From an uncultured Planctomycetales bacterium (GTDB lineage: Bacteria; Omnitrophota; Gorgyraeia; Zapsychrales; Fredricksoniimonadaceae), in NCBI GenBank assembly GCA_964572155.1, contig CAZNDZ010000001.1:15300-79299 (forward strand): DNA of 64,000 nucleotides, read 5' to 3'. Below are positions 10,245 through 64,000 of the stretch, one piece after another. The notes under the pieces are model-generated. The model had not been told where the DNA came from and searched no databases. It saw only the letters and a list, made by a program, of their open reading frames with translations. Both the position numbers and the translations under genes were made by a program. Each line of letters starts with the position of its first letter. Within the stretch, counting starts at the first letter, position 1.

Positions 10245-10928
10245 CTATTGTCCCTTAGCCGTTAAAAATATGATTGTCTCAACGCGCTGCATTAATTTGC
10301 CTTTATTACGAAAAACTAATCCCACAATCGGCAAATCACCTAATAAGGGAAACTTGTGTGTTTTAGTAACTTCATGCTCATAAAAAATTGAACCCATGAC
10401 AATCGTCGATCTAGGTTTCAAATCAAGGCGCGTTGAACCAACTTTACTCTTGATGGTAGGCTGCAACATCAGCTGCTTTTCACCTTTGCTATCCATCGTT
10501 AATTCCACATCGAGAGCAATTGTATTTTTTACATCTTCTTTAAGAAATACTAACGTTTGTTTTTCATCTGCCGTTAAGGTTATGGTCTCCTGATCAACCT
10601 GGGTTACCTTACCAACTGCATCCAAGGCATCTAACAAAACCCCATAGTCTTCGTCGGATACTGAGCCAACGCTCAACTTTTTCTTATTCTCAAGTGCATC
10701 ATCACTCTTAAGCGTGACCGCATGAAAATCACTAACAATGGCTTCCCAATCAACGCCATCCCGGTGTTCGTCGTTTAAGATAATTGATACCACATGTGGT
10801 TGAAGGATAATTTGAGCCAACGGGGTCGTTGCATTCTCTTGCGCCCAAGCTGGTAACGCAAACAAAACACAACACAACAGAAGCCATGAAGCCTGTAACT
10901 TATGAAATCTCATTGTCGACATTCTCAT
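10245..10928 (-). CDS. Small secreted secretin-like protein: an N-domain-like region plus only the conserved secretin C-terminal tail
   Basis: Signal peptide (WLLLCCVLFALPAWAQE). The C-terminus FPLLGDLPIVGLVFRNKGKLMQRVETIIFLTAKGQ matches the invariant C-terminal motif of T2SS/T4P secretins. At 227 aa it is far shorter than a canonical secretin of over 400 aa. Confidence 0.45.
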   Translation of the reverse strand: MRMSTMRFHKLQASWLLLCCVLFALPAWAQENATTPLAQIILQPHVVSIILNDEHRDGVDWEAIVSDFHAVTLKSDDALENKKKLSVGSVSDEDYGVLLDALDAVGKVTQVDQETITLTADEKQTLVFLKEDVKNTIALDVELTMDSKGEKQLMLQPTIKSKVGSTRLDLKPRSTIVMGSIFYEHEVTKTHKFPLLGDLPIVGLVFRNKGKLMQRVETIIFLTAKGQ

Positions 10929-37983: not shown

Positions 37984-39000
37984 TTAAGACGACGGAGGAG
38001 CGCAGGATTCGCGGACGATGAGTTCAGGGGTTAACAGCTTTTGAACCACGCCTGTTTGCTTGCCAGAAATGATGTCAGATAAGACTTTAACAGCCTCTTC
38101 ACCCATGGAAAACAAGGGTTGTTTAATCGTAGTTAAACTCACAGGACCAAATAAACCAACAGGGTTATCATCAAAACCAATAACCGAAATATCTTCAGGA
38201 ACTTTGATGCCATTTTCCATCGCAACCGAGATAATTTCCAAGGCCATGTCATCGCTCGCGGCAAATACAGCTGTTGGTGGATTATCTAAACCAAAGAAAC
38301 GTTCGGCCGCAGAACGCGCAGAGCGACGGGAATAATCGCCTTTATAAAAATATTCTGGCTCAAACGTTAAATCTTTTTTCATCAAGGTCTTTTGGAAACC
38401 TTCAAAACGTTCAATACCCGCTTGTGTTTGCATATTTCCGGTGACAGTCGCAATGCGTTTATGCCCTAAGTTCATCAAATATTCTGCAGCAATGACCCCG
38501 CCTTTGAAATTATCAACGGCGATATAGCTAACATTTAAATCCTTAACCACATAATTAAGGACAAGCGCTGGGATGCCATCTTCAATCGCATCTTCCACTT
38601 GTGAACGATTCTCAATGATATCCGCAAAAATTAATCCACCTGCATAATTGGACTTCAATGGATTTCTTCCGTCGGTGATGTGAAAAATCATGTCCAAACG
38701 GCCAACTTCACAGCCATGACCAATACCACGGATGAGTTCAACCGCATAAAAGGAATGAAAAATACCAGGGTATCCAGGGATCACAAAACCGATTGCAGAA
38801 CTGCCAGAACCTTTGGCTAAACGTTGCGCGGTTGGATTTGGTTTAAATTTAAGTTCAGCAATGGCTGATTCAACACGGGAGGTGATTTCTTTATTGACGG
38901 TATTGACTTTATTGATGACACGCGAAACAGTGGTGATCGAGACATTGGCTTTCTTAGCCACGTCGGTGATGCTAATTTTCTTCTTAGGTTTTGGGACCAT
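37984..39000 (-). CDS. LacI/GalR-family transcriptional regulator
   Basis: N-terminal HTH ISITDVAKKANVSITTVSRVINK and a periplasmic-binding-protein-like effector domain. 338 aa. Confidence 0.85.
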   Translation of the reverse strand: MVPKPKKKISITDVAKKANVSITTVSRVINKVNTVNKEITSRVESAIAELKFKPNPTAQRLAKGSGSSAIGFVIPGYPGIFHSFYAVELIRGIGHGCEVGRLDMIFHITDGRNPLKSNYAGGLIFADIIENRSQVEDAIEDGIPALVLNYVVKDLNVSYIAVDNFKGGVIAAEYLMNLGHKRIATVTGNMQTQAGIERFEGFQKTLMKKDLTFEPEYFYKGDYSRRSARSAAERFFGLDNPPTAVFAASDDMALEIISVAMENGIKVPEDISVIGFDDNPVGLFGPVSLTTIKQPLFSMGEEAVKVLSDIISGKQTGVVQKLLTPELIVRESCAPPSS

Positions 39001-50438: not shown

Positions 50439-50452
50439 AGAGAGGGATTACT

Positions 50453-50776
50453 TTAGGCGAGGGAATATTTCATCAGACGCGACATCTTTAATAAATTTAT
50501 TTTAGGAAAATTAACACCCACATCCCACATATTGGCGCTTGCTGGTTTACTCCATGCAACGCGACCTGTAAGGATTAAGGGAGAACCACCATCTGGCATT
50601 TGCACTTCTATCGATACAGGATCATCAAGGAACATGCGTTCACGGGTGCTAATGCGAATACCAGAAGCCGATGCGTCTCTTAAAAAAACTTCAACCCCAT
50701 AATCCGCACGAAAATCTTTAAAGCGCGTCGGAAAACGAGTCGAGAATCGCTCAAATATGCGGCGTTCTTGATCCAT
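50453..50776 (-). CDS. Standalone PilZ-domain protein (c-di-GMP receptor-like)
   Basis: RRIFERF (RxxxR) and DASASGIRIS (DxSxxG), the two c-di-GMP-binding PilZ motifs. 107 aa. Confidence 0.65.
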   Translation of the reverse strand: MDQERRIFERFSTRFPTRFKDFRADYGVEVFLRDASASGIRISTRERMFLDDPVSIEVQMPDGGSPLILTGRVAWSKPASANMWDVGVNFPKINLLKMSRLMKYSLA

Positions 50777-50779
50777 AGG

Positions 50780-51109
50780 TTATACTGTTTTCAAATATTT
50801 ATTCAAACGTGTTGCTGAACCTGCTAAAACTTCTTGGAAATTCATGCCAATGCGGTATTGCTTTGATTCTTCAATCTTACGCACCCATTTGACAACACCC
50901 AAAACCAACACCGGCGCTGTATCAGGCTGTAATTGGATTTCAATCGCTACTTTTTCATTGATCTCATGTGCGTGGCTCGAGATAAAACCAATGCCGTTCT
51001 TGCTAATGTCAACCGTTCTGGTTTGATCAAAAGCAGAACCTTCTTTCCCTTCTACCGGAACAATACAACCATGACGCGATTCAGTGCGTTTGTTAGCGGC
51101 AGATTTCAT
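50780..51109 (-). CDS. Standalone PilZ-domain protein (c-di-GMP receptor-like)
   Basis: KRTESRH (RxxxR) and DISKNGIGF (DxSxxG). 109 aa. Tandem with the previous PilZ gene. Confidence 0.65.
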   Translation of the reverse strand: MKSAANKRTESRHGCIVPVEGKEGSAFDQTRTVDISKNGIGFISSHAHEINEKVAIEIQLQPDTAPVLVLGVVKWVRKIEESKQYRIGMNFQEVLAGSATRLNKYLKTV

Positions 51110-51312
51110 ATGGACCTCTTCTATTTAAATATAATAACAGTGATTGGGGTTGAAAACGCTTTCTTATTTCTAATTGTAAAACATTTTCCCAAAAGTGCAA
51201 TAAAATTTCATAAAAACTTATTGTACGGGTATAACCTTAGGCAAAATAGCCACTTATAAAGAATTCTTGAGTTTATATTGCTCACGCATTCCTAAATGCT
51301 ATAATAAATTTT

Positions 51313-51510
51313 ATGGCAAAGAAACCCGCACCTGCAAAAGTAAAATTCAATATTGCTGAATACAATAAAGGAAAAGATCTGCGCGAAAAGAACAGATTAA
51401 AGCTGTTTTACCCTACCTTAGTGAAGGTTTTGGTAGCCATTCCTGTCGTCTACTTCTTATTTTTGATTATTTACTTCTTAACCACTGCGAAGAACCTGCC
51501 TGAACGTTAA
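51313..51510 (+). CDS. Hypothetical small Lys-rich protein with one C-terminal TM helix (only plus-strand gene in this region)
   Basis: 65 aa, MAKKPAPAKVKF...VKVLVAIPVVYFLFLIIYFLTT. A TATAAT box ends 8 nt before the ATG and there is no SD, so possibly leaderless. Could also be a spurious ORF. Confidence 0.3.
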   Translation: MAKKPAPAKVKFNIAEYNKGKDLREKNRLKLFYPTLVKVLVAIPVVYFLFLIIYFLTTAKNLPER

Positions 51511-52787
51511 AACTTGTAGATAAAAACGATGAAGTATCTGGATCTTGACTTATAGAATCCAAAGGTATTGCTGGGATCTCCGGCGAAGATATCCATACCA
51601 ATCTTAACTTGCCAATGGCTATTGATATTGTATTTTAAACTGGGGCGATAGAGGAAATCGGGGCTGTCAAGGCTTGCCAACATCATAAATTCGGCATCAA
51701 GCTTGTGATTTAAGAAGTCGCGCGATACTCGAAACGATGCACCATTAGAAAACCGATGTTCATTATAGAACGATTCATTGTAATCCAAGACCACCTTTTG
51801 AAAATATTGTACGCCCACATTGATCTTATCGAAAAACGTCTTATCCATCCCCAAAACATAGGTTAAATCATCACTGCGTGCCACCCCATCGTCATCACTT
51901 GGATCTAAAGAGGAAAAATAATTGTCTTTATTAAAAACAAACTCACCGCTGATGACGGTCTCACCGACTTCTTTTGAAAAAGAACCGCCAAATGAATTAA
52001 GACGCTTATATTGAGGATCGAAATTATAAACACCACTGCCGCTAATCGTGCGAAATGCCACGGGCGCATGCGTCCAACTATACACATAAAATGCCCCAAG
52101 ATCGTAGCCGCCAAGTAAGTAAGATACACGCGCACCAGCCTTGGCATCACTAAAACCATAAGGTTGTTTTGGGTCAGCTGTTGTAAAGGAAACACCTGGC
52201 GGCACTGGCAAAGGATTAGCAAATTCAGCCCCATCAACACCCATCCGATCAAATTCTGGAGCAGGGATGATAAATGTTTCCGCATGAAATTTATCGCGCG
52301 TATATTCCACATCTGCACCCCACTCAGGAGTTCGGATTTGATCGAAATCCATGAGTGTATTCTTGCGATAATCCTTGGCATTCACAATATCGGCAACAAA
52401 AGCGCCAACCGCATCACCCCAAACAATTTGCTGTTTGCCTAGACGCACGTCCCAAGGACCGTTGGAATAATCCAGATAGGTGTCGCGCAGATCAGCTTGC
52501 AGGCGTTCATCGGAGGCCGCATTGACCGAATAATTGTCTTGATCAAACGCCGCGTCATAATTAAATCTACCGCTAACACGATAATGCAAGGTTTTTGTCA
52601 AATCACCGGAGCCATCTAAAATCACTTGTGATTGGATGTTGGAAAATTTATCTGAGGCATACATGTGACGCGCCAAGGTTTGCGACATCGAACCATGCAA
52701 GACAAAAAGATTCTCATCCGCTGCAGCTAAAGTGCTGCATGCGCAAACCATCAACAACAAACCAAATGCACGGATTTGAATTTTCAT
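51507..52787 (-). CDS. Putative outer-membrane beta-barrel protein
   Basis: Signal peptide (LLLMVCACSTLAAADE). Tyr/Gly/Asp-rich alternating pattern. C-terminus YFIVFIYKF ends in Phe. 426 aa. Confidence 0.5.
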   Translation of the reverse strand: MKIQIRAFGLLLMVCACSTLAAADENLFVLHGSMSQTLARHMYASDKFSNIQSQVILDGSGDLTKTLHYRVSGRFNYDAAFDQDNYSVNAASDERLQADLRDTYLDYSNGPWDVRLGKQQIVWGDAVGAFVADIVNAKDYRKNTLMDFDQIRTPEWGADVEYTRDKFHAETFIIPAPEFDRMGVDGAEFANPLPVPPGVSFTTADPKQPYGFSDAKAGARVSYLLGGYDLGAFYVYSWTHAPVAFRTISGSGVYNFDPQYKRLNSFGGSFSKEVGETVISGEFVFNKDNYFSSLDPSDDDGVARSDDLTYVLGMDKTFFDKINVGVQYFQKVVLDYNESFYNEHRFSNGASFRVSRDFLNHKLDAEFMMLASLDSPDFLYRPSLKYNINSHWQVKIGMDIFAGDPSNTFGFYKSRSRYFIVFIYKF

Positions 52788-52805
52788 GCGTATAAAAAGA
52801 CTGCG

Positions 52806-53549
52806 TTAATAAGCCAATTTTTTTAAATACTCTTTGGAAAAATATTTTTCTGGAATTTCTTGTATCGTAATATCGCCATATTCAATCGTCGAATATTGAC
52901 CTTTCATAACGGCATCAGACAATACCAGCTTTGATGGACGCTCTGCACCTCCCAATGTCTTATAATTCTCATAACTACATGTCTTCAAAAACCTACCACT
53001 GATGGCATAAAATTCTGCTTTTAATGGCCAAAATGTATCATGTTCAGCCCATAAAATGACTTTGCCGTAGGTCGCCGTATCTGTTTTAGCTTTTAATTCC
53101 AATACATAATATTTTTTACCATTAATATCATCATCACGTAGCATGGTGGCATTATAGTCGCCGGAAAAATTGGTGCGGGCTATATCGCCATTGCTCACAT
53201 CCCCTGTTAACTTTTCTTGTAGTGAAATGCGCAAAGGTTTGGCAACTTCGGGAAAGAATGCCCAGAAATCTGGGCCACGCATTAATAATGATCGCCCTCG
53301 TTCCGTTTGAGGCTCTATGGTCTTGATGATGGTATTATCTTTCCCCTTTAACAATACTTCATACTTTGCCATGCGCTGCGCACGATTGGGCTTATAGCTA
53401 GTCACCGTGGCAATGCTCGAATGATCCTCAGCCACATTACGCACCCCGTCAACCTTAGCCACAATCTCATCCGGTGTTAATTGTGCCCATGTTGCCGTCG
53501 ATAAAATACATGCCGCAATGGTGGTAACCATCAAAAATGAATGTCTCAC
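52806..53549 (-). CDS. Outer-membrane lipoprotein-sorting protein (LolA-like fold, PF17131-type)
   Basis: Signal peptide, then QLTPDEIVAKVDGVRN...F.P......ISLQEKL, the characteristic start of LolA_like proteins that accompany FtsX-type ABC transporters. 247 aa. Confidence 0.55.
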   Translation of the reverse strand: MRHSFLMVTTIAACILSTATWAQLTPDEIVAKVDGVRNVAEDHSSIATVTSYKPNRAQRMAKYEVLLKGKDNTIIKTIEPQTERGRSLLMRGPDFWAFFPEVAKPLRISLQEKLTGDVSNGDIARTNFSGDYNATMLRDDDINGKKYYVLELKAKTDTATYGKVILWAEHDTFWPLKAEFYAISGRFLKTCSYENYKTLGGAERPSKLVLSDAVMKGQYSTIEYGDITIQEIPEKYFSKEYLKKLAY

Positions 53550-53553
53550 AAGT

Positions 53554-54423
53554 TTACTCCGTCTTTAATGTTAGCGAATAAATCATGCGTTTTAAACGTT
53601 GTAAAGGGCTTTTCATCCCTAAAGGATAATATCGTTGATTCACCTGTTGGGTGAACATATCAAACTGATAAATATGCGGCGCATAATCAACCTTGGCTTT
53701 GCCTGTTAACATCTTGACGGTTTCTGTGCTCGACAAAGCCCCAACCAGCATAAGCCCAGGGCAAACACTAGCCCCTCGACGCTGCTTCGGATTCAATACC
53801 CGAGAGCGATCAAGGTATTTTAAACAAAATGGATTTGGATTTAAGCCCGCAATCATGGTTAAAATTTTTTGAGTAGGATCAAGCTTGTCGGAAAAATCAA
53901 AATATTCATCAAAGCTCATGCCTGTTGGAGAAAACATGATCATCGTCGCCCCAAAACCCATGGGTGCACATGTTAAAGACGGGATGCCTTTAAGCCGCGT
54001 GTGACGAAAGAATAAACGTTTGACCTCGATCTCATAGAGATCAATTCCATCTAATGCCACATCAACACCGTCTAAGAATGCTGTGATATTTTCTGGGTTA
54101 ATGCCTTTGGAAAAAACTTCCACCTTCGCTTGTGGATTGATATCTAAGATCATCTGACGCATGACCTCGCATTTGTCCACACCGATCGTCGACATCGTCG
54201 CACCCATTTGTCGATTCATATTGGTCATATCAAAGGTATCTAAATCCGCAATGCGAAAAGCACCGACACCTAAACGTGCTAAAGCCTGAGCTTGGTATCC
54301 ACCGGCCCCACCAACACCGGCAATGGCCACAAGCGAGCTTTTTAATTTAGCTTGTTGCTCCTCGGTGAGCCAACCTAAATTGCGATCAAATGCTTTTTCA
54401 TAAACAAATTCATTAGCCGGCAT
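53554..54423 (-). CDS. ThiF/MoeB/HesA-family E1-like adenylyltransferase
   Basis: SLVAIAGVGGAGGYQAQALARLGVGAFRIADLDTFDMTNMNRQ is the nucleotide-binding Rossmann motif of E1-like enzymes. 289 aa. Not part of the thi operon. Confidence 0.7.
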   Translation of the reverse strand: MPANEFVYEKAFDRNLGWLTEEQQAKLKSSLVAIAGVGGAGGYQAQALARLGVGAFRIADLDTFDMTNMNRQMGATMSTIGVDKCEVMRQMILDINPQAKVEVFSKGINPENITAFLDGVDVALDGIDLYEIEVKRLFFRHTRLKGIPSLTCAPMGFGATMIMFSPTGMSFDEYFDFSDKLDPTQKILTMIAGLNPNPFCLKYLDRSRVLNPKQRRGASVCPGLMLVGALSSTETVKMLTGKAKVDYAPHIYQFDMFTQQVNQRYYPLGMKSPLQRLKRMIYSLTLKTE

Positions 54424-54425
54424 GA

Positions 54426-54914
54426 TTATGAGCTTTCCGTCTTAGGTGAATATTTTTCTTTATAATATTTTTTCAAATCTTGGGGCGTATGGTTATGTTG
54501 CAAAAAATTTGCGCGCCATGTTTTGGCTTTATGGCAATGAGGCAAATCTTTATTTTGTATCGGGCAGTAGCGTTTTTCTATTTCATTGGTGATGGCCAAG
54601 GTCCATTGCAAGGTGCCGTTCGCCCACTCGCAATATTCACACCACATCTTATCCATGAATCCCATGTGAGGCACTTTGTGACGATCATATTGAAAAAAGT
54701 TTTTAGGATCGACGGGTTTTTGCCCACGCAGGCTAAAATACGCCCAATTAAAAAAGAACGTGTACAAATATAAGGGCAACAAAAATATGGCAAAAGAAAC
54801 CATGACGGGATAACCCAATAACGGGGTTAAAGGCCCGAGGGGTTGTTTGTGACCTTCACAACAACTAAGCTCTTTTAAACAAGCTTGGACACTTACTTTT
54901 TCTGTATTAGACAT
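54426..54914 (-). CDS. Cys/His-rich single-pass membrane protein of unknown function
   Basis: 162 aa, one TM (GYPVMVSFAIFLLPLYLYTFFF). Cys/His clusters (CLKELSCCEGH, CEYCEW, CP...HCH). 2-nt gap to the ThiF-like gene. Confidence 0.4.
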   Translation of the reverse strand: MSNTEKVSVQACLKELSCCEGHKQPLGPLTPLLGYPVMVSFAIFLLPLYLYTFFFNWAYFSLRGQKPVDPKNFFQYDRHKVPHMGFMDKMWCEYCEWANGTLQWTLAITNEIEKRYCPIQNKDLPHCHKAKTWRANFLQHNHTPQDLKKYYKEKYSPKTESS

Positions 54915-54973
54915 AGGAAACCTTTCTATGGTTAGAATACCATAGCCTCGGCGTGAATTAATAAATAATTTGA

Positions 54974-56194
54974 TTAAATTTCGTAGATTTCTTTAAGGTA
55001 AGCTTGATGCTCGGGCTTGAAGTTATTCCAGAATGTGCTGTTTTTAACAAGGCCTTGTACAAACGGTTTAGACAAGGTGAAATCCATGTTAAAGGTGCGT
55101 GGGTATTTCGTTTCTTTAAAGAAGTACATGCCTGGGCCTTCTTTAAGCAACATCGTATGGCGATAAGCATCCGGGATGCTTAATTTCATCAACACCGCCG
55201 GAGCAGCGTTGGCACCATGATAGGCTTTTGCTGGGCTGATGGTTTCAAAATTCAAATATTTGTATAAGAATTCATGGCGTGGATGACAACCGATGATAAA
55301 ATCCGTAACCTTATTCGACGCACGTGCATAATCGAACATCGTCTTGTATAACTTATATAGATACGCTTGTTTCTGGAAATTCTTAAACGAGTATTGCTTC
55401 ATGTTCACATGTTGAGAATTTAACGCCAATGCGCCTACTTCCGCAATCTTCTTGCCTTGTGCACGCAGGTTCTTAATTTCTTCAGGAAAAATTGTTTCCA
55501 TCGGAATGCCCATCGGTGAATCTGCCACCAAACACATGGTCCCTAAAAGTTTTTCATCTTTGCGAAGCAAGAAGGTGCGTGATCCGGGAACAAAACTATA
55601 AGAATTATAAAACATGTTTTCTTGATTAGGCACACACAACTTGCGTGACAAATATTCTTGATACACCAACGCATATGCCGCTTTTAATTCATCCAAATCA
55701 TCGACGTCTAAACCACTACAATCTGCCGTATATTTTTCTAAGAACCAGCTATTAATATCAGCCAAACTCCAAAGCACATTATTTAATTGATGAAATTTGA
55801 TCGCTTTTTCTTTAAACGCAATGTGACATAGGTTCTGATTATTTTTACCTGTAGAAAAACCAACAACCTTGCCCGTTAATTTAAAAACTTCACGGACATT
55901 CATATTCTTCTTGGGTATCTCAACATCAATGGCTTCTCCAACTTCAACCAAACCACTAACTTCAATGCACATACCGCTACGAGAAATATTAACCGTCTTT
56001 GACATTTCCCACGTAGGATTAACTTGATTTGATAATTGGTAATATATAGGAATGACTTTATTAATGCGGTTTTCGCGGCGTAATTCATCCACAAAAACAG
56101 TTTTCATAATACTGGAAGATAACTGCTGAAGCCCTTCTTCCAAATGTTCGAAGGGATTGCTTGATTCTGTAGTATGGTCCAACTTGAATTTCAT
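54974..56194 (-). CDS. Fusion of an N-terminal PilZ domain with a C-terminal GNAT-fold N-acyltransferase of the FeeM/OlsB/autoinducer-synthase-like family (Acetyltransf_5)
   Basis: PilZ motifs ELRRENRI (RxxxR) and NISRSGMCIEV (NxSxxG). The C-terminal about 250 aa (LKAAYALVYQEYL..., FLLRKDEKLLGTMCLVADSPMGIPME, IAEVGALAL) fits the N-acyl-amino-acid synthase family pattern. Confidence 0.5.
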   Translation of the reverse strand: MKFKLDHTTESSNPFEHLEEGLQQLSSSIMKTVFVDELRRENRINKVIPIYYQLSNQVNPTWEMSKTVNISRSGMCIEVSGLVEVGEAIDVEIPKKNMNVREVFKLTGKVVGFSTGKNNQNLCHIAFKEKAIKFHQLNNVLWSLADINSWFLEKYTADCSGLDVDDLDELKAAYALVYQEYLSRKLCVPNQENMFYNSYSFVPGSRTFLLRKDEKLLGTMCLVADSPMGIPMETIFPEEIKNLRAQGKKIAEVGALALNSQHVNMKQYSFKNFQKQAYLYKLYKTMFDYARASNKVTDFIIGCHPRHEFLYKYLNFETISPAKAYHGANAAPAVLMKLSIPDAYRHTMLLKEGPGMYFFKETKYPRTFNMDFTLSKPFVQGLVKNSTFWNNFKPEHQAYLKEIYEI

Positions 56195-56298
56195 GGGTAC
56201 TCCCTCTTTTCCACATACGTCCCGCTAACATTAGTTTAGCATGCAGGAACCCAAAAACAAGGTCTGGAGGCTGTATTTGAGAAAGCGGTTTCTTGAAA

Positions 56299-57564
56299 TT
56301 ATCGATGTCTTAGCGCGTCGGTGATGACGAGTTTGGAGGCGCGGTAGGCGGGACATAAGGAGGAAATGGCGCCGATGATAACGCAGAGGATAAAAGTGGT
56401 TAAAAGGACGCTTGGAACGATGCTGGGTTGGGATAACCAGTTCATGGTGCCGCCTGGTGCGGGGGGCATGACAATGCCGATAGCGGCAATTGAGGATACA
56501 ATGCCACTGCCAATCGCTAACCCTAAGGCCCCACCAATCGACCCCAACAATAAACCTTCCAATAAAAATAATTTCATGATGCCGCTACTCCTGATCCCTA
56601 AGGCCATAAGTGTACCTATCTCACTAATCCGCTCTAATACGGCCATATTCATGGTATTAAAAACACCTAAGATCACCACAATGGACACAACCACGCGCAT
56701 GATCAAATGGAACATGTCAAACAATTCAACGGTCTTTGTATAAAAGTCGGTGATTTCTCTCCAGTCTAAAACTTCTAAATCTAAATGATTCTCCTGGAAG
56801 ATGGCTTGAAGTTTTTTCTTCATAGCAACCGTATCATCGTCGTTGCGCAAATAAACAACCAACGTTTGCACAGAATCTGTGCCTAACAATTTCTGAGCTG
56901 TCTTTAAAGGAACACGCAAGAAAATGTCATCAAAACTTTTTACCCCTGAATAAAATACCGCCTTGGTATTTAAGTCCATGGCATTGGATGATCCGTTGAC
57001 GGTATTGGTCAATAACGTCACATTCATGCCCGGGTGCGCGTCCATGGTTTGCGCCAACCCTCTGGCTAGAGCAACTTCTTTAAAGTCGTCCGCCGCTAAA
57101 CTCTGCCCCTCTTCGACAATCGGTAAGCCTACACTCTCCCCCTTATATAACTTTCTTAAATTGAGTGTATCTGCCTTAAGGAGCATTTTCTCATATACTG
57201 GATTAACCCCTTGTCCATAAAATGAGACCGTAGTTTCCCCAGTACTTAAAAGACCCGCAAAAATAATGCGCGGTGCCACATAATCCACATCAGGGACAGC
57301 CTTAACCAATGCCTCTACTTTAGAAAGATCCTCGATAAAATAGCTATATGGATCAGTTTTGCCGTATTGAATAAAGCCCTTCTTATTGATCTGCAAATGA
57401 CCTGTTTGACTCTTAATGTAACTGGCGCGCATTTGCCAGAAGGTGTTTTCAAAGAAACCCCCAACAAAAATGAGCGCGGTACAGCCAAAGACAATCGTCG
57501 ACAACGTAATAAGCGACCTTGCCCGATGACGAAATATATTGCGAAATGCTAATTTAAACATCAT
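56299..57564 (-). CDS. FtsX-family ABC transporter permease (MacB/LolE-like) with a large periplasmic domain
   Basis: [34 protein letters not shown]-terminal TM1 signature, about 230-aa periplasmic domain, three C-terminal TMs. 421 aa. Confidence 0.8.
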   Translation of the reverse strand: MMFKLAFRNIFRHRARSLITLSTIVFGCTALIFVGGFFENTFWQMRASYIKSQTGHLQINKKGFIQYGKTDPYSYFIEDLSKVEALVKAVPDVDYVAPRIIFAGLLSTGETTVSFYGQGVNPVYEKMLLKADTLNLRKLYKGESVGLPIVEEGQSLAADDFKEVALARGLAQTMDAHPGMNVTLLTNTVNGSSNAMDLNTKAVFYSGVKSFDDIFLRVPLKTAQKLLGTDSVQTLVVYLRNDDDTVAMKKKLQAIFQENHLDLEVLDWREITDFYTKTVELFDMFHLIMRVVVSIVVILGVFNTMNMAVLERISEIGTLMALGIRSSGIMKLFLLEGLLLGSIGGALGLAIGSGIVSSIAAIGIVMPPAPGGTMNWLSQPSIVPSVLLTTFILCVIIGAISSLCPAYRASKLVITDALRHR

Positions 57565-59318
57565 GCGGTGATAACCCCATCCCAGATGCGCACCAATCGA
57601 TCGGCCTCATCCATGACTTTTTGATCGTGGGTTGAAAATATGTAAGTGATCTTCTTTTCACGACTGCTCTTCTTCATTAGCGCAATGATCTCTTCGCCTG
57701 TTTTATGATCGAGGTTCGCTGTTGGCTCGTCGGCTAAGATGAATAGTGGCTCACGCACCATGGCACGGGCAATGGCCACTCGTTGCTGTTGGCCGCCACT
57801 TAACTCTAAGGGCTTATGGTTGGCATGCTTCGATAAACCAACTGCATCCAATGCCGCCAACGCTTTACGTCGACGCTCTTGCGGTGTCATAGTCTTTTGT
57901 AACAATGGAAACTCAACATTCTCAACAGCTGAAAGCACAGGCAACAAATTAAAATTCTGAAAAATAAAACTAATCTTATGCGCCCGCAAATCAGCCAACG
58001 CATCGGGCGATAATTTCGACACATCTTGACCATCGATGATCACCTGTCCGGAACTAGCCGTGTCAATGCAACCAATGATATTGAGCAACGTCGTCTTACC
58101 GCTGCCCGACGGGCCAGCAATGGCTAAAAATTCCCCACGGCCAACGCTTAAATTGATGCCTTTAAGCACATCGACGCGGTTCTTGTTTAAAAAATAGCTT
58201 TTATTAACATTGCTGATATTAATTAACGACATATGATTATCCTTATTGACGGCATCTTTGACCATGATCTCATTTAACGACAGCCGAATTGACCGTGATG
58301 TTTTAGGTTTAGCAAATCCAACCCGCCCCATCCACACCAAATTCTTACGAATACTGTCACTCCCTAACAATGTTGATAAGTCCTCTTTAATATCCATCGC
58401 TTTTTCTTTTACATGCGGCATGGTCGACAAAACCTTACCCTCATCAAGATACTTTGAAAAAAGCATGGGTGTATACGACGGCTGATGCGACAATCCTTGG
58501 GATGTTAGTGCCAACCAAAAGCGTTGGATAGCTCTACCCGCCGCTATCCAATCCTCAGGCGTTGTAGGTGTTTTATCAGTGACGATGGCAATGCCAGCAG
58601 AGCACATGATGTTGGGCAATAATTCCAACTTCAATGCGGTCATATAATGACCTAACATCAAACGGTTATAGGCTTCCATGCGTTGCGGTTTACCTAAGAA
58701 CCAACGCATGATCGGCAAGAATAGTGTTGGCATACCTAAAGCCTTAGACGGAATTCGATCAGGACTTAAGTCGTGTTCCCAATCAACAATCTTGCTGTGC
58801 ACATCAAACATTTCTGGAATTAAATACCGTAACGCTGCTGATTTGAAAATGAGCGAAGCAAAATCCATTTTTTGTTTATCTTCAAACCATAAAATCTTAT
58901 ACCCCGACGGCATTTGTGCTTCTATATTTTTCTTTTCCGTATCTTTTAACGGTGTCATGGCATATGTGAAACGATTGACCATCCGGTGTTCGATGAAACG
59001 GGCTAATGGATCAACCTTAGGATTTTGTGATTTTGAAACAACGACACGATAAACCGGCGCTTTGCCTAGTTGTGGTGGATCTACCTTATCAACAACGATA
59101 TCAAATCCCAAAGCCCCTGCTGCTGTATGCATATTTTCCAAAAAACAGCCTAAGGCAATATGATCAGAATGTCGATTTAGATGAAAGATGGTGTCGAGCA
59201 AATACCCCGTTGTGACCTCACAAGCATCCTCCGCGATCATCTTAACCCGCCATGCCTGTTCATTGTCTCCGCTGGGCGCCCATCGAGCTTTATCTAAAAG
59301 TTTTTCAATATGTGTCAC
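57561..59318 (-). CDS. Fusion: N-terminal nitroreductase-like domain (about 360 aa) + C-terminal LolD/MacB-type ABC ATPase
   Basis: N-terminus [13 protein letters not shown] matches the nitroreductase APSxxNxQPW signature, plus HRMVNRFTY (RxSxRxF-like). C-terminus [13 protein letters not shown] (Walker A), [14 protein letters not shown] (ABC signature), ILADEPT (Walker B). ATGA overlap with the downstream FtsX gene. Confidence 0.65.
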
Positions 59319-59339
59319 AATAAACCTCCCCCAATCAAA

Positions 59340-60608
59340 CTACCTGTAACGCAATGCTTCGACAATATTAAGCCGCGATGCCCTGCATGCAGGAAACCAC
59401 GACGATATTCCGCCAATCATGGTTGATAAAAAAAATGTAAATACCATCACCGAAGGCACAATGACTGGCTGAGAAATCCAACTCATGGTGGTTCCCGGCG
59501 ACGGCGGCATCACAATCCCAACCTTGCTAATACCAAAAACAATCACACATCCCATGCTCACACCAATCAAACCACCGACCATCCCCAAGAGGATGCCTTC
59601 GTATAAAAACAATGTCAAAATGCCTTTGCGTTTAACACCCATGGCCATGATGGTGCCAATTTCACTAAAACGTTCCATGACCGACATGTTCATGGTGTTA
59701 AAAATTCCCAAAATAACGGCGATGGATATAACAATGCGCATCACCCAATGGAATGTATTAAATAGATCTGCTGTCTTTACATAGAAATCAGAAAGCTCGT
59801 CCCATGTTTTAATTTCTAAATCATAGTGATACAACTTAAACAAGCGCTCTAGCCCTGCTTTCACCTTTAAGGTATCGTTGGTATTATGCAACTTCACAAC
59901 AATGTTTTGAACCGATGTTGTATTGAGCATTGATTGCGCTGTGGCTAAGGACATTCTAACGGTCATGTCATCATAATTCTTATCTGACGTTGCCATTACG
60001 CCTTTGACGTGCATGTCCATGGCATTAACACCGCCATGGACGGTATTGGTCATCACCGTCACAAATGCCCCTGGCTTCACATTAAGCGCTTCTGACAAAC
60101 CTTTGCCAATGATCAACGTTTCTGGCACATCTTGGGCGCTTAAACCATCCCCCACAATGATTTCACCTAATCCATTATCATCAGGACTTATCGATGTCGA
60201 TTTTCGGTCTTTGTATTTTGACGTTAAGAAGGTGCGGTCAAAATCAATGTTAACACCTTGACCCATGCATGGCAGTGAAGCATCGCCCAAATTGATAAGA
60301 CCAGAAAACTGCAAACGCGAACCAACCGATTTTACTTGTGGGATCTTATGAATCACATCCGCAATGGCTTGCGGGTCGCTAATGAGATAACTATAGGGCG
60401 AAATCTTGCTGTTTTTTTCGTAACCCGCTTTGAATATCTGAAGATGTCCAATTTGAGCATTGATGTAACTTTCTTTCATTTGAGTTAACGCATCGGTGAA
60501 GAATCCAGCGACAAACATGAGAGCGACACAACCAAAAGCAATCGTTGATAATGAAATGATCGATCGCGCTTTATGTCTAAAAATATTTCGCAAGGCAATA
60601 TTAAACAT
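59340..60608 (-). CDS. FtsX-family ABC transporter permease (LolC/MacB-like), paralog of 56299..57564
   Basis: MFNIALRNIFRHKARSIISLSTIAFGCVALMF and the same architecture as the paralog. The longest ORF extends to 60653, but the Met at 60608 aligns with the paralog start. Confidence 0.75.
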   Translation of the reverse strand: MFNIALRNIFRHKARSIISLSTIAFGCVALMFVAGFFTDALTQMKESYINAQIGHLQIFKAGYEKNSKISPYSYLISDPQAIADVIHKIPQVKSVGSRLQFSGLINLGDASLPCMGQGVNIDFDRTFLTSKYKDRKSTSISPDDNGLGEIIVGDGLSAQDVPETLIIGKGLSEALNVKPGAFVTVMTNTVHGGVNAMDMHVKGVMATSDKNYDDMTVRMSLATAQSMLNTTSVQNIVVKLHNTNDTLKVKAGLERLFKLYHYDLEIKTWDELSDFYVKTADLFNTFHWVMRIVISIAVILGIFNTMNMSVMERFSEIGTIMAMGVKRKGILTLFLYEGILLGMVGGLIGVSMGCVIVFGISKVGIVMPPSPGTTMSWISQPVIVPSVMVFTFFLSTMIGGISSWFPACRASRLNIVEALRYR

Positions 60609-62190
60609 CGGAGTACCTTCCCGGAGACATGATGCCTTTAGGATCAAGGGCATGCTTAATGGAACGCTGTACTTTCCAAAATGTATCCTCAGGGTTTACC
60701 AAATCATGCATCATATCAACACCTGTGCGATAAGGATATACACCCATCTTACGCCCACCTTCTAACAATGCTTCAAAACAGGCCTTGGCGCGTTGTGTTT
60801 GATCTTCGTTGTTTAAATCAAAAAGAATTGGGACCGTACTATCAAAACATTTTTCAGAAACACTCGATAACGTGATCAATGGCTCCATTTGATACTGCGC
60901 ACATGTGCGCTCGACAAAATCAATATAACGTCTAACAAGTGCCGCTTTCATGGGAACTAATGGTGCGTACCATAAAAGACCACAACCATCCCGTGCTGGA
61001 TTTAACGTAACCCCTTGGGGAACACCTTGCCGCAACTGACGATAACATAAACTTAATGCCCCACCGTTGGGACGCCCCTCAGATAGATCTAATGGGATCA
61101 GCATTTTTTGAAACTGCACAAATAAGGCTTTTGGAATAATAAACCCCAATGGTTTTAAAATCGACTGCAGCAAGAGCACACGCGAACGTGTTAAGAAAAT
61201 CACCCGATTCACATCTGGTTTAATGCGTGCTTTGAGCGCATGCTTAGCTGCTTTGATGATCGATTTCTTTCCATAAAAAGAACCAATGCATGTCCACGGC
61301 GCATATCCTGCTTGCTTGGCCTGTTGCTTTAAGTGTGCAATAAAATTATTTGGGGATGCCGCAACCTCATCAAAAGGAAACGGAAGTGTCATGGATAGCA
61401 ATTGCAATGAACTGATCATTTTAATTGAACCAATCAAAGCACCATGTTCAATCAGAACATTTCGCACCAGGTCAACAGTCTTTTCCAAATCAGCATCTGA
61501 GGAAATGTCAAAATAAAATGTTTCCACATGTTCTGGTCGTGGGGCTAAGGCAATGGTCATTTCTGTGACAATGCCATAATTGCTTTGTGAAAATATACCA
61601 TCAATATATGGGCCTATCCCCCATTTAAAAACCTTGTCGACCTGATGACATCCTTTCGCATAAATCGCTGAACGATATATGGTCCCATTGGCCAATACCG
61701 CTTCTAAATTCATGACAGCGAAGAAATGGTCCGCAAGAGGAACCAAGCCATAGCCGCGCTCTAAAGCATTCCCTAGAATACTAGCCTCAGGACCTGCACC
61801 TGTTGTTGGCATAAGATACTCATCACCATGTTCTAATAAAAATGTCGCTAGTTGCCCTTGCGTTACCCCTGGCTCTACAGTGATCACTCCCAAATCAGCA
61901 TCATAGCCACTAATTTTTGTCATGCCTGAAAGATCAACAATCACACAACCATCCGTTGCTGGATTAGCAGTACCATAACCCCAATTATTGCCTTTGCTAA
62001 TAGGATATAAAGCAATGTTATGTTGATTAGCAATTTTAACAATATCCACGACTTCTTGTCGTGTGGTCGGGGCAACAACGCCTAATATTTCACGTTTGGC
62101 ACCTGTTGTATCAGCATGGTATTTTTCAAGATCTTGCGGATTTGTTTTCACATGGATACTACCAAATATGTGCATCATTTTATCAATCAT
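60601..62190 (-). CDS. FAD-linked oxidase (PCMH-type FAD_binding_4 domain, VAO/GlcD superfamily)
   Basis: N-terminal FAD-binding domain (VVAPTTRQEVVDIVKIANQHNIALYPISKGNNWGYG...VIVDLSGMTKI), C-terminal substrate-binding domain ending SPGRY. 529 aa. Confidence 0.65.
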   Translation of the reverse strand: MIDKMMHIFGSIHVKTNPQDLEKYHADTTGAKREILGVVAPTTRQEVVDIVKIANQHNIALYPISKGNNWGYGTANPATDGCVIVDLSGMTKISGYDADLGVITVEPGVTQGQLATFLLEHGDEYLMPTTGAGPEASILGNALERGYGLVPLADHFFAVMNLEAVLANGTIYRSAIYAKGCHQVDKVFKWGIGPYIDGIFSQSNYGIVTEMTIALAPRPEHVETFYFDISSDADLEKTVDLVRNVLIEHGALIGSIKMISSLQLLSMTLPFPFDEVAASPNNFIAHLKQQAKQAGYAPWTCIGSFYGKKSIIKAAKHALKARIKPDVNRVIFLTRSRVLLLQSILKPLGFIIPKALFVQFQKMLIPLDLSEGRPNGGALSLCYRQLRQGVPQGVTLNPARDGCGLLWYAPLVPMKAALVRRYIDFVERTCAQYQMEPLITLSSVSEKCFDSTVPILFDLNNEDQTQRAKACFEALLEGGRKMGVYPYRTGVDMMHDLVNPEDTFWKVQRSIKHALDPKGIMSPGRYSDV

Positions 62191-63791
62191 CGAGAGTACC
62201 TGCCTGGAGACATGATATTGTTAGGATCTAATGCCTGCTTGATCGATGCTTGTACATTCCAAAATGAATGTTCTGGATCAACCACGTCTTTCATCATGCC
62301 AATGCCCGCCCGATGAGGGTATGCCCCTCGCAAACGCCCCCCTTCAATCAGCGCCGCTAAACACTCTTTGGCTCGCCGAGACTGATCTGTATTCATCGGA
62401 TCAAATAAAATAGGTATTGGGCTAATGATGCAACGTTCCGAGATGCTGGTCAATGTTACTAATGGTTCAATGCCGTAATGCTCACATGTGTTTTCTACAA
62501 ATTGAACATACGCACTTGCGGTATGCGGCTGTAATGGTAAAAGTGGTGCATACCAATAAATACCACATCCATCCGCTGCTGGATTTAGATTCTTTCCTTT
62601 GGGAACACCTTGACGCAGTTGTCGATAACATATGTGCAACGTTTCCTGCCGCGGCTTACCTGACAAAATATCGAGCATCATGGTCATCTTTTCAAAACGA
62701 TTCCTAATTTTCGAAAACAAATTCTTCGGTAAACGTGAAAATAACGCATCAATGAATAAAATTTTCTCTTTAGATAAGAACAAAACCCGTCGAGATCGTT
62801 CTCTAACTATTTTGACCAATTCTTTTTTAACAGCTTGGATGACATACTTATGTCCGTAAAGTGATCCCATGCAAGTCCACGCATAAAATCCATTTTCTTT
62901 GGCTTTACGCTTTAAAATACTTTTGGCTTTATCTGGCGTGGCATCAATTTCATCAAAAGGATAATCTGCGGTCACAGCTGATAATCGTAAATCACTCATG
63001 ATATTGATTGACCCAGAAAACACACCAACATCTTTAAGTATTTTTCTAACCGTCACTATCGCATCCTCTAAATCTTCTTCCTTTGAGAATTCAATGAAAA
63101 ATATTTCGATGCATTCTGGCTTGGGTCGCAAGGCAATCGTTGCTTTTGTCACAATACCAAAATTACTTTGAGAGAACAAACCATCGAGATATGGGCCAAT
63201 GCCCCATTTGAAGACCCCATCAACATCTTCACATTCTTTAGCATGGATGGCAGAATGATAGATACTACCATCAGCTAATACAACTTCTAAACTCATGACA
63301 GCAAGAAAATGATCCGCAATCGGCACTAAACCATAACCACGTTCTAAAGAATTTCCTAAGATCGTGCCATCAGGACCAGTGCTGGTCGTTGGGGTTATAT
63401 ATAAATCATCGTGTTTTAAAAGAAATGCCGCAAGCTGTTCTTGAGTAACGCCTGGCTCTAATGTCACAACCCCTAATTGTGGGTCGTAGCCACTAATAGT
63501 ATTCATGCCAGATAAGTCCACAATGACAGAACCACTTTGTGCAGGATTTGCCGAACCATATCCCCAATTATTTCCCTTACTAATAGGATATAGCGCAATG
63601 CCGTATTCCGACGCGATCTTAACAATCGCAACAACTTCAGTTGACGTGATTGGCCTTAAAACACCTGAAATGATGCGGGATGAATTTGTTGTATCAGCGT
63701 GGTACTTTTGCAAGTCAAACGCTTGTGTTTTTACGCGTTCAGCGCCAAGCAAATTTTGCCATGCAGTTAAAGCTACTGATAAGTTATCCAT
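62187..63791 (-). CDS. FAD-linked oxidase (PCMH-type FAD_binding_4), tandem paralog of 60601..62190
   Basis: VLRPITSTEVVAIVKIASEYGIALYPISKGNNWGYG...VIVDLSGMNTI, about 50% identical to its neighbour across the full length. ATGA overlap with the downstream paralog. Confidence 0.65.
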   Translation of the reverse strand: MDNLSVALTAWQNLLGAERVKTQAFDLQKYHADTTNSSRIISGVLRPITSTEVVAIVKIASEYGIALYPISKGNNWGYGSANPAQSGSVIVDLSGMNTISGYDPQLGVVTLEPGVTQEQLAAFLLKHDDLYITPTTSTGPDGTILGNSLERGYGLVPIADHFLAVMSLEVVLADGSIYHSAIHAKECEDVDGVFKWGIGPYLDGLFSQSNFGIVTKATIALRPKPECIEIFFIEFSKEEDLEDAIVTVRKILKDVGVFSGSINIMSDLRLSAVTADYPFDEIDATPDKAKSILKRKAKENGFYAWTCMGSLYGHKYVIQAVKKELVKIVRERSRRVLFLSKEKILFIDALFSRLPKNLFSKIRNRFEKMTMMLDILSGKPRQETLHICYRQLRQGVPKGKNLNPAADGCGIYWYAPLLPLQPHTASAYVQFVENTCEHYGIEPLVTLTSISERCIISPIPILFDPMNTDQSRRAKECLAALIEGGRLRGAYPHRAGIGMMKDVVDPEHSFWNVQASIKQALDPNNIMSPGRYSR

Positions 63792-64000
63792 GATGCCCTT
63801 ATCATCTCAAATTATCAGACAATAAACAAAACTCTTTTTGGATTTTTACTTGCCGATGCAGAAAGCAGAAAAGATTTTATCGAGCAGATCTTGATCAATA
63901 TTGCGACCGGTAATGGCATCGCATTGATTAACCGCATCTTTGATATTGTGTGACACAATCTCCCATGAGGCATTTGTCTTAATCAAGGCTGTGCTTTCTT

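Follow-up and report, generated by a model that had tools for sequence, protein, structure and literature searches.

Enzymes that couple a synthase of N-acyl amino acids (NAS) to a c-di-GMP receptor domain have been described before. Nas343 and Nas354, of metagenomic origin, in which a type I FeeM-type NAS and a PilZ domain share one polypeptide, were cloned and expressed, produce N-acyltyrosines, and were proposed to be under c-di-GMP control (Thies et al. 2016, PMC4897644). Nas354 is active in E. coli without manipulation of c-di-GMP, and its PilZ domain is not strictly needed for catalysis there; the E103A substitution abolishes its activity (PMC4897644). PixB of Myxococcus xanthus, a PilZ-PilZ-GNAT protein, binds c-di-GMP in vitro and is thought to be made more active by it (PMC8316039). 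Direct control by a second messenger is also described for NasP, a cAMP-activated NAS (Clardy & Brady 2007, as cited in PMC4897644), and for Rv0998 (PDB 4AVB), a GNAT regulated by cAMP through a fused cyclic-nucleotide-binding domain (PMC8316039), but in both cases the ligand is cAMP and the sensor has another fold. In BcsA and Alg44, as cited in PMC4897644, binding of c-di-GMP to a fused PilZ domain switches on the synthesis and export of a surface product, although the products are polysaccharides and PilZ is carried by a glycosyltransferase or co-polymerase rather than an acyltransferase.

A second group of described systems would be related through chemistry. The pathways encoded by OxzAB of P. 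rubra (10.1101/2020.06.11.147165), TyzACB (PMC10404671) and TrzAS of M. tuberculosis (PMC12856293) have been established experimentally, and each relies on a NAS, a ThiF-like enzyme and a nitroreductase-type oxidase. The stieleriacine clusters of Planctomycetota contain the same gene set with one to four NAS genes; in S. neptunia most stieleriacine production does not come from the in-cluster NAS, and what ThiF does there has been called enigmatic (PMC12479983). The thalassotalic and kyonggic acid clusters are further examples of this kind. TyzA and OxzA are only remotely related to FeeM. The position of trzAS beside c-di-GMP turnover genes in M. tuberculosis is the only earlier hint of a link between such a pathway and this second messenger (PMC12856293).

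Here we describe a gene that would bring these two groups together. It lies within a 64,000-nucleotide stretch of DNA (the window) and encodes a 406-residue protein, PilZ-NAS, in which a PilZ domain and a FeeM-type NAS are fused in one polypeptide. The features of the gene are as follows.

54974..56194, minus strand: PilZ-NAS gene, 406 aa; PilZ N-terminal, FeeM-type NAS C-terminal, followed by a helical tail of about 60 aa
55784..56083, minus strand: PilZ domain, beta-barrel, aa 38-137 (Pfam and fold)
56066..56080, minus strand: RxxxR c-di-GMP motif, R39 R40 E N R43 (translation and conservation)
55973..55990, minus strand: [D/N]xSxxG c-di-GMP motif, N69 I S71 R S G74 (translation and conservation)
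55160..55777, minus strand: catalytic domain of the FeeM-type NAS, aa 140-345, with the Pfam core at aa 172-338
55439..55441, minus strand: Glu252, predicted catalytic residue, equivalent to the Glu of FeeM 'LAEV' and to Nas354 Glu103
54977..55159, minus strand: helical tail at the C-terminus, aa 346-406, a feature specific to this subfamily of NAS

[quoted passage not shown] In the Pfam scan PF07238 matched residues 38-128 with 31.0 bits against a gathering cut-off of 22.5 (E=3.2e-7), a modest score, and the second motif lies 25 residues past R43, within the usual spacing of about 20-30. R39, R43, S71 and G74 are each at least 90% conserved in an alignment of 44 diverse members. Both motifs, as RxxxR and [DN]xSxxG, are kept in 53 of 61 family representatives, these being diverged family members from a library clustered at 50% identity. 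This degree of conservation argues that the c-di-GMP motifs are under selection. By sequence, the domain appears to be a canonical c-di-GMP receptor, from which we infer that it binds the ligand.

The catalytic domain gave a much stronger signal, matching positions 1-157 of the 158 in the FeeM-type NAS profile with 123.9 bits against a cut-off of 27 (E=6.6e-36), and a FeeM-like, GNAT-related alpha/beta fold is present. E252, which lies in 'IAEVGALAL', lines up with the 'LAEV' Glu of FeeM (FeeM Glu95, Nas354 Glu103) and is invariant in both alignments that we made (A1 and A2). A comparison with Acetyltransf_5 and OlsB drawn in the preliminary description was not borne out: Acetyltransf_5 (PF13444) gave no match at E<=10 in the Pfam scan, a scan in which the HMMER speed filters can drop very weak matches, and an OlsB-like aminolipid N-acyltransferase was rejected on this basis. 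We also rejected a LuxI-type AHL synthase, on the Autoind_synth profile and on the closest fold. The amino acid and acyl specificities of PilZ-NAS cannot be read from its sequence. In the predicted structure the arrangement of the two domains is confident (pTM 0.76), which suggests a fixed intramolecular PilZ/NAS interface that would be compatible with allostery. The same model places helices at 376-385 and 394-404 of the C-terminal tail, and an HMM purpose-built for this tail matched 59 of 165 relatives.

Although the preliminary description knew of no characterised example of this architecture, Nas343 and Nas354 are a published precedent (PMC4897644), in the reverse domain order. They resemble PilZ-NAS in domain content, in the conserved catalytic Glu and in length (about 394 aa, with 406 aa here), and for both a regulatory role of c-di-GMP has been put forward. 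The NAS domain of Nas354 occupies residues 1-200 and is followed by a linker and PilZ at 279-394, whereas in the window protein PilZ (38-137) precedes NAS (140-345). By their published description the genes for Nas343 and Nas354 lie outside any biosynthetic operon, whereas the window gene sits inside a cluster of ThiF, oxidase and exporter genes. PixB shares with PilZ-NAS an N-terminal PilZ region fused to a GNAT-fold acyltransferase, but it has two PilZ domains, lacks the Ser of the second motif, and its catalytic part is a generic GNAT acetyltransferase acting in motility and development, where PilZ-NAS has a long-chain NAS of FeeM type encoded within a metabolite cluster.

The same two-domain architecture, for which the preliminary description had suggested a database search, was recovered repeatedly. 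Both Pfam domains occur in about 93 of the 115 clusters recovered by the homologue search and in 56 of the best 165 profile matches, a recurrence which indicates that the PilZ-NAS pairing is a selected unit, and about 100 clusters retain the covalent fusion. Among relatives with a name, the nearest come from Ca. Omnitrophota MAGs. The homologue search behind the 115 clusters started from a Planctomycetia member and gave proteins from MAGs and metagenomes only, and another search, with a 44-sequence profile and a strict E-value, added nothing new among the matches listed. Variants of the fusion include a tandem PilZ-PilZ-NAS protein (P0027), a PilZ-FeeM-ThiF fusion (P0046/L014), a PilZ-FeeM-methyltransferase fusion (P0233/L015), and a split pair in locus L013, in which 2 nt separate the PilZ gene (142 aa) from the NAS gene (295 aa). 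Related Omnitrophota and Planctomycetota MAG clusters carry tandem PilZ-NAS paralogues, and the NCBIfam family PRK14852 unites a NAS-like domain, ThiF and a nitroreductase-type (NTR) domain within one protein.

The gene neighbourhood, which the preliminary description did not take up, contains the following features.

60601..63791, minus strand: two tandem FAD_binding_4 oxidases in overlapping or abutting frames, head of the co-directional gene string (Pfam)
59340..60653, minus strand: MacB/LolCE-type permease 1 (MacB_PCD and FtsX; Pfam, NCBIfam)
58230..59318, minus strand: flavin-dependent oxidase domain of the nitroreductase superfamily (Acg/TyzC-like), forming the N-terminal part of a 585-aa fusion (NCBIfam)
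57561..58229, minus strand: LolD/MacB-type ABC ATPase domain, in frame with the oxidase domain (Pfam, NCBIfam)
56299..57564, minus strand: MacB/LolCE-type permease 2 (MacB_PCD and FtsX; Pfam, NCBIfam)
54426..54914, minus strand: protein of 162 aa, single TM segment, Cys pattern CxxC...C...C; conserved in the position directly upstream of ThiF
53554..54423, minus strand: ThiF/E1-like adenylating enzyme predicted to cyclise N-acyl amino acids (TyzB / OxzB N-domain-like; Pfam, NCBIfam)
52806..53549, minus strand: periplasmic carrier, LolA-like (TP_0789-like), whose N-terminus resembles a signal peptide (Pfam LolA_like, E=2.3e-45)
51507..52787, minus strand: putative outer-membrane protein, DUF1302-like, whose N-terminus resembles a signal peptide (Pfam DUF1302, E=9.4e-14)

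These genes are co-directional and tightly packed in an operon-like manner, with intergenic gaps of -53 to +104 nt, and ThiF, encoded by the same strand, follows 551 nt downstream of the NAS gene after a single small gene. In 50300-64000, promoter and terminator matches were no more numerous than the shuffle expectation and did not inform the operon boundaries. The linkage of NAS to ThiF recurs in six other loci (L003, L005, L009, L012, L013 and L014); permease 2 is conserved in L003, L005, L009, L012 and L013, the LolA-like protein in L005, L009, L012 and L013, and the DUF1302-like protein in L009 and L013. NAS, ThiF and NTR occur together in every sufficiently long locus, and the set of NAS, ThiF, NTR, ABC ATPase, MacB permease and LolA-like protein, with or without DUF1302, is present in at least five independent MAG loci. 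The cluster recurs in MAGs of both Omnitrophota and Planctomycetota. The 162-aa protein, which had no Pfam or NCBIfam match, is 75% identical to a homologue in the same position in L003. The pair of FAD_binding_4 oxidases was not found in the other loci compared, and its membership of the pathway is uncertain. A regex scan of the ORFs of the 64-kb window found no GGDEF, EAL or HD-GYP motifs; an additional PilZ-like regex match at 37984-39000 was a chance match in a LacI-family regulator.

ThiF was identified by its Pfam match (E=4.7e-40) and by a score of 343 bits against a cut-off of 266 for NCBIfam PRK08223, a family without a named function; it also matched PRK14851, PRK14852 and the Rv1355c family model. 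Its best solved relative is TcdA (E=1e-19), with which the adenylation and ATP-binding motifs G36VGGAG, N70RQ and D125GID align and are kept, and TcdA forms an oxazolone ring (PMC12596934). The oxidase domain matched the NCBIfam Acg-family FMN oxidoreductase model (E=1.1e-27) and positions 377-718 of 722, the FDO half, of the Rv1355c (TrzS) model (E=2.5e-26), and is 53% identical to a stand-alone protein in L003. The window ThiF and NTR domain each match one half of a ThiF-NTR fusion in L005 (37% identity to its ThiF half and 35% to its C-terminal half, respectively), and in the same way each matches one half of the Rv1355c/TrzS model. Given that their scores against this model (75.5 bits for ThiF and 92 bits for the oxidase) are far below its equivalog cut-off of 476, the two are best regarded as relatives rather than orthologues of the Rv1355c (TrzS) family, and ThiF was set beside TyzB, OxzB and TrzS by way of family models. 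No stop codon interrupts the oxidase/ATPase junction. Within the fusion, Pfam ABC_tran covers residues 385-534, and the ATPase matched the NCBIfam LolD, DevA and MacB models at E=1e-62 to 1e-67. Since all of these scores are below the equivalog cut-offs, the exporter would be a relative of the LolCDE/MacB type VII ABC class and not LolCDE itself.

The combination of NAS, ThiF and nitroreductase-type oxidase is common to this cluster and to the OxzAB, TyzACB, TrzAS and stieleriacine systems. Related loci carry ThiF-NTR fusions, as in OxzB and TrzS, and tandem NAS paralogues and a UbiE-like methyltransferase occur, as in Stieleria. In contrast, the accounts of these systems that we consulted describe no PilZ domain on the acyltransferase, no Lol/MacB-type exporter and no oxidase-ATPase fusion. 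With this context, the prediction is no longer a plain N-acyl amino acid but a derivative that has been cyclised, desaturated or both.

These data allow us to propose a pathway. PilZ-NAS, as the first committed enzyme of the cluster, would N-acylate an amino acid, probably aromatic by analogy with the known pathways, from acyl-ACP or acyl-CoA. The ThiF-like enzyme would then adenylate the free carboxylate and cyclise the product, and the Acg/TyzC-like flavin oxidase would desaturate the C-alpha/C-beta bond, so that the outcome would be, as for OxzAB, TyzACB, TrzAS and the stieleriacine pathway, an N-acyl oxazolone or an N-acyl dehydro-amino acid. The fusion of this oxidase to the ATPase of a MacB/Lol-type ABC exporter would join tailoring to export. 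We favour, with reasonable rather than firm confidence, a model where a c-di-GMP-sensing NAS begins a conserved cluster whose product is probably an exported oxazolone or dehydro-amino-acid lipid, with c-di-GMP gating the first step. Of the control that the preliminary description had imagined, direct action of a second messenger on N-acyl amino acid synthesis is in our view the best reading, and the 53 representatives that keep both motifs are consistent with it; its alternative of aminolipid synthesis is not supported, given the lack of an Acetyltransf_5 match. c-di-GMP is more likely to activate PilZ-NAS than to inhibit it, judging from BcsA, Alg44 and PixB, although HfsK provides a counter-case of a GNAT inactivated by c-di-GMP (PMC5362036).

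PilZ domains that do not bind c-di-GMP exist, the founding PilZ protein among them, and many PilZ proteins act by binding partners. The PilZ domain could on this account be a structural relic on a constitutive NAS, as might be read from its modest profile score, from the eight of 61 family members without a clean motif pair, and from the ability of the PixB acetyltransferase to function without its PilZ domains during growth (PMC8316039); we consider this very improbable. Alternatively, PilZ might bind c-di-GMP as a docking or localisation module rather than as an allosteric switch, for example by tethering NAS to the ThiF/oxidase-ABC assembly or to the membrane at high c-di-GMP. The separate PilZ and NAS polypeptides of L013 must act through protein-protein contact, physical coupling is repeated in the cluster (the oxidase-ATPase, ThiF-NTR and NAS-ThiF fusions), and the membrane localisation of HfsK shifts on c-di-GMP binding (PMC5362036). 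Retention of the direct covalent fusion to the catalytic domain across so many clusters speaks against docking, however, and the confident inter-domain model is better suited to allostery, which leaves this reading unlikely.

A further question is whether PilZ-NAS supplies ThiF and the oxidase at all, or whether these act elsewhere and the end product is a plain N-acyl amino acid serving as a biosurfactant, antibiotic or membrane aminolipid. Nas343 and Nas354 by themselves yield N-acyltyrosine surfactants in E. coli (PMC4897644), stieleriacines persist after deletion of the in-cluster nasY2 in S. neptunia (PMC12479983), and a simple lipoamino acid could be the cargo of a Lol-like exporter. Against this, NAS-ThiF fusions (P0046, PRK14852), the ThiF-NTR fusion and the co-occurrence of NAS, ThiF and NTR point to the NAS product being the substrate of ThiF and the oxidase, for which Oxz, Tyz and Trz provide biochemical precedent, and the Pfam scan held no OlsB-family signal; a plain product is distinctly unlikely in our judgement. 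Given the Lol-like context we also considered whether the FeeM domain acylates a lipoprotein, and rejected this because the NAS-ThiF and ThiF-NTR fusions imply small-molecule chemistry.

Returning to the model of a c-di-GMP-gated pathway, the concept of a PilZ-NAS enzyme is not unprecedented, and what is new is a PilZ-NAS gene leading a conserved cluster for the probable synthesis and export of an oxazolone-type lipid in uncultured Omnitrophota-like bacteria. More tentatively, and as a possibility that we would not yet lean on, c-di-GMP may, acting directly on the enzyme, gate the synthesis of an exported N-acyl-oxazolone or dehydro-amino-acid lipid in Omnitrophota and Planctomycetota through a separate PilZ switch on each tandem NAS, with the last tailoring enzyme coupled to a Lol-like exporter that carries the product to the cell surface or the outer membrane. 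The physiological function of bacterial N-acyl oxazolones and dehydro-amino-acid lipids, and how they are regulated, are unsettled in the literature (PMC12856293, PMC12479983), and with about 100 PilZ-NAS enzymes in such clusters the idea of c-di-GMP control can be tested with one purified protein. If it is true, lipid and natural-product synthesis would join the short list of enzymes directly controlled by a fused PilZ domain, a small-molecule lipid or signal would be a new class of output for PilZ signalling, and the physiological role of bacterial oxazolones, unresolved according to PMC12856293, would gain its first regulatory handle. The coupling to MacB, LolA-like and outer-membrane proteins, together with the oxidase-ATPase fusion, suggests lipids destined for the cell envelope or for release, which would bear on the surface biology of the uncultured Omnitrophota.

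The studied protein, PilZ-NAS, is a genuine 406-aa product of an open reading frame at 54974..56194 on the minus strand, with an ATG start preceded by a Shine-Dalgarno-like AGAGGGAG. Two Pfam domains exceed their curated thresholds: PilZ (PF07238) at aa 38-128 (31.0 bits, cut-off 22.5, E=3.2e-7) and FeeM (PF21926; NAS, for N-acyl amino acid synthase) at aa 172-338 (123.9 bits, cut-off 27, E=6.6e-36). The c-di-GMP signatures R39-R-E-N-R43 and, 25 residues on, N69-I-S71-R-S-G74 have canonical spacing, bearing out the PilZ call made in the preliminary description from the motifs RRENR and NISRSG. That description had also called the C-terminus FeeM/OlsB-like; the FeeM assignment holds for Pfam family, fold and PDB match, whereas the OlsB assignment does not, as Acetyltransf_5 (OlsB family) gave no Pfam match to the protein at E<=10. 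A confident AlphaFold2 model (13 homologues; mean pLDDT 82.7, pTM 0.76) has a beta-barrel (aa 49-137) that a helix (140-155) connects to an alpha/beta domain reaching about aa 345, after which comes a helical tail. At the level of this predicted structure, fold searches independently confirm both domains; Foldseek ranked FeeM first, and its matches included the cAMP-gated GNAT Rv0998. FeeM was also the sole PDB sequence match of the family profile (E=9.6e-22), and E252 in "IAEVGALAL" aligns to the Glu of FeeM "LAEV".

Searched with a family profile, 1.84 billion cluster representatives gave 4,989 FeeM-like matches, of which 231 fell below 1e-30. Of the best 165, 56 share the N-terminal PilZ module; in several others PilZ sits on a longer linker, and one protein has a pair of PilZ domains. 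Seeding the search with a Planctomycetia member gave 115 clusters at 90% identity, with both Pfam domains precomputed for about 93 of the 115. Named members, annotated "PilZ domain-containing protein", derive from Candidatus Omnitrophota MAGs and one Verrucomicrobiae MAG, and the reference-genome loci from Omnitrophota and Planctomycetota MAGs; no named member or reference-genome locus found came from a cultured organism. RxxxR and [D/N]xSxxG are both kept in 53 of 61 representatives drawn from a library clustered at 50% identity. In a 44-sequence family alignment with a mean column identity of 19%, E252 never varies, and conservation is at least 90% at R39, R43, S71 and G74. Conservation in both sets indicates that the PilZ ligand-binding residues and the catalytic Glu are under purifying selection.

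PilZ-NAS lies within a densely packed, co-directional gene string (gaps of -53 to +104 nt), whose limits were judged by gene spacing alone because a promoter and terminator scan was uninformative.

Genes of the cluster in transcription order, all on the minus strand
1 and 2. 62187-63791 and 60601-62190: two FAD_binding_4 (GlcD-like) oxidases
3. MacB_PCD+FtsX permease
4. 57561-59318: 585-aa oxidase-ATPase protein
5. Second MacB-type permease
6. 54974..56194: PilZ-NAS
7. 54426-54914: 162-aa single-TM Cys-rich protein, without a Pfam or NCBIfam family match
8. ThiF-family protein (E1-like adenylating enzyme)
9. LolA-like protein with a signal-peptide-like N-terminus
10. DUF1302-like protein with a signal-peptide-like N-terminus

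At the head of the string, the tandem FAD_binding_4 oxidase genes overlap one another and the gene of the first permease. The related loci lack them, and they may encode tailoring enzymes peculiar to this species or have no connection with the pathway. The 162-aa protein has one predicted TM segment (aa ~32-58) and the pattern C92xxC95...C117...C127; its homologue in the Omnitrophota MAG locus L003 (11976-12476) shares 75% identity with it, the less conserved PilZ-NAS reaching 62%, and in both loci the gene is directly upstream of ThiF.

The 585-aa protein combines a nitroreductase-superfamily (NTR; Acg/TyzC-like) flavin oxidase (aa 1-352) with a LolD/MacB-like ABC ATPase in its last ~220 residues (aa ~363-585). 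The junction is in frame without a stop codon, and internal Met363 ('MSLINISNV') could start a free ATPase. L003 and the Omnitrophota locus L013 encode the two parts, in unchanged order, by separate genes that overlap. It is unusual for a tailoring enzyme to be joined to the motor of its own exporter. The oxidase domain is recognised by the Acg-family model for FMN oxidoreductases (E=1.1e-27) and aligns to positions 377-718 of the Rv1355c family model, which has 722 positions (E=2.5e-26), while the window ThiF matches positions 90-225 of the latter, exceeds the PRK08223 cut-off and has TcdA as its closest solved relative (E=1e-19). A 659-aa ThiF-NTR fusion in L005, from a Planctomycetales MAG, resembles the window ThiF in its N-terminal half (37% identity, E=6e-55) and the window oxidase domain in its C-terminal half (35%, E=4e-58).

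These enzymes have published counterparts. OxzA yields N-acyl-tyrosine, which the ThiF-nitroreductase fusion OxzB cyclises and oxidises in an ATP-dependent manner (10.1101/2020.06.11.147165). M. tuberculosis has TyzA for the N-acylation of Tyr or Phe, the O2-using desaturase TyzC and the ThiF homologue TyzB, which cyclises with ATP (PMC10404671); there, TrzA and TrzS (Rv1356c and Rv1355c, TrzS being a fusion of ThiF with a flavin-dependent oxidase) make N-acyl tryptazolones (PMC12856293). The planctomycete Stieleria likewise has this gene set, which includes 1-4 NAS genes together with a methyltransferase and is proposed to make N-acyl dehydrotyrosines, the stieleriacines (PMC12479983). The physiological role of oxazolones has been called a major unresolved question, and trzAS adjoins c-di-GMP turnover genes (PMC12856293). 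A motif scan of the 64-kb window found no such turnover genes. The published Oxz, Tyz, Trz and stieleriacine accounts and a 2025 review of ThiF-like chemistry mention no PilZ, c-di-GMP receptor or ABC/LolA-type exporter in clusters of this kind.

When the window cluster proteins were searched against the ORFs of related loci, the core set was found again in independent MAGs.

Related loci
L003/L006 (Omnitrophota): permease, oxidase, ATPase, permease, two PilZ-NAS, methyltransferase, small Cys-rich protein, ThiF
L005/L007/L008 (Planctomycetales, one 40-kb MAG contig, CAZKUL010000006.1): seven PilZ-FeeM paralogues, ThiF-NTR fusion, ABC ATPase, MacB permease, LolA-like, SDR, DUF4442, extra NTR
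L009 (Planctomycetia), L012 and L013 (Omnitrophota): same core, DUF1302 in part
L014, 9152-11194: 680-aa PilZ-FeeM-ThiF fusion (P0046), behind two PilZ-NAS genes
L015, 2191-4062: 623-aa PilZ-FeeM-UbiE-like methyltransferase fusion (P0233), then a fatty-acid desaturase

The seven paralogues suggest differently specific synthases, each PilZ-tagged. Two-part fusions are the ThiF-NTR of L005 and the oxidase-ABC ATPase of the window. P0046 and P0233 share a sequencing run (SRR13608701). NCBIfam PRK14852 (989 positions) holds NAS-like (37-202), ThiF (312-583) and NTR (623-747) regions in a single protein, and PRK14851 (679 positions) ThiF and NTR; by sequence they resemble oxazolone-type pathways, complete or in part, within one polypeptide. 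NCBI still labels both 'hypothetical protein', without a functional name. In L013 a 142-aa PilZ gene (9486-9914, 33 bits), with TISGAG in place of [D/N]xSxxG, stands 2 nt ahead of a 295-aa FeeM/NAS gene that lacks PilZ (9917-10804); ThiF, NTR, ABC, MacB, LolA-like and DUF1302 genes lie downstream in the same cluster. The pairing of PilZ with NAS therefore serves a function and is no accident. Most likely the NAS supplies the ThiF and oxidase enzymes with substrate.

From the domain identities and folds observed, the conservation of ligand and catalytic residues, and the conserved linkage and fusions of the genes, we consider a c-di-GMP-modulated, exported oxazolone-type pathway reasonably probable. 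Here the PilZ domain would bind c-di-GMP and modulate NAS activity, the ThiF enzyme would adenylate and cyclise the N-acyl amino acid, and the flavin oxidase would desaturate it; the product would then pass to the MacB-type exporter with its oxidase-fused ATPase, and the LolA-like carrier would take it on to the DUF1302-like outer-membrane protein. Judged from the analogous BcsA, Alg44 and PixB, activation by c-di-GMP is more likely than inhibition, for which HfsK is a precedent (PMC5362036). It is unlikely that the PilZ domain has instead a docking role, and a little less likely still that the end product is a plain N-acyl amino acid, ThiF and oxidase genes being linked to the synthase. A non-binding PilZ domain appears improbable, and an AHL synthase very much so; Pfam gave no Autoind_synth (LuxI family) match to PilZ-NAS at E<=10.

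Downstream of DUF1302, at a distance of 397 nt, are two adjacent stand-alone PilZ genes (50780-51109 and 50453-50776, minus strand) encoding 109 and 107 aa, each having RxxxR and DxSxxG-type motifs; a GH94 glycoside phosphorylase and a sugar ABC importer are encoded directly downstream of them. The two PilZ genes, found only in the window species' loci (L001, L002), may be a second c-di-GMP output of the same neighbourhood. A further PilZ candidate at 37984-39000 (minus strand) was a chance match to a loose regular expression; it is a LacI-family transcription regulator (LacI HTH and Peripla_BP_3).

The preliminary description knew of no characterised example of the fusion, but NAS joined to PilZ was published in 2016: Nas343 and Nas354 (NAS 1-200, PilZ 279-394) make N-acyltyrosines in E. 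coli, lose activity with E103A, and were described as "unique" in architecture, with c-di-GMP control proposed, not tested (PMC4897644). Their order is NAS then PilZ, whereas that of the window protein is reversed. Related precedents are PixB, a PilZ-PilZ-GNAT protein that binds c-di-GMP (PMC8316039), NasP, a cAMP-activated NAS as cited in PMC4897644, and the cAMP-gated Rv0998. As far as our literature search reaches, what is new is that the PilZ-then-NAS order characterises a family of about 100 clusters from Omnitrophota and Planctomycetota, that this family is placed systematically in oxazolone-type gene clusters, that those gene clusters are coupled to a Lol/MacB-like export route, and that the oxidase is fused to the ATPase. 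For a specialist in c-di-GMP or natural products, PilZ-NAS is a good and directly testable lead rather than a surprise.
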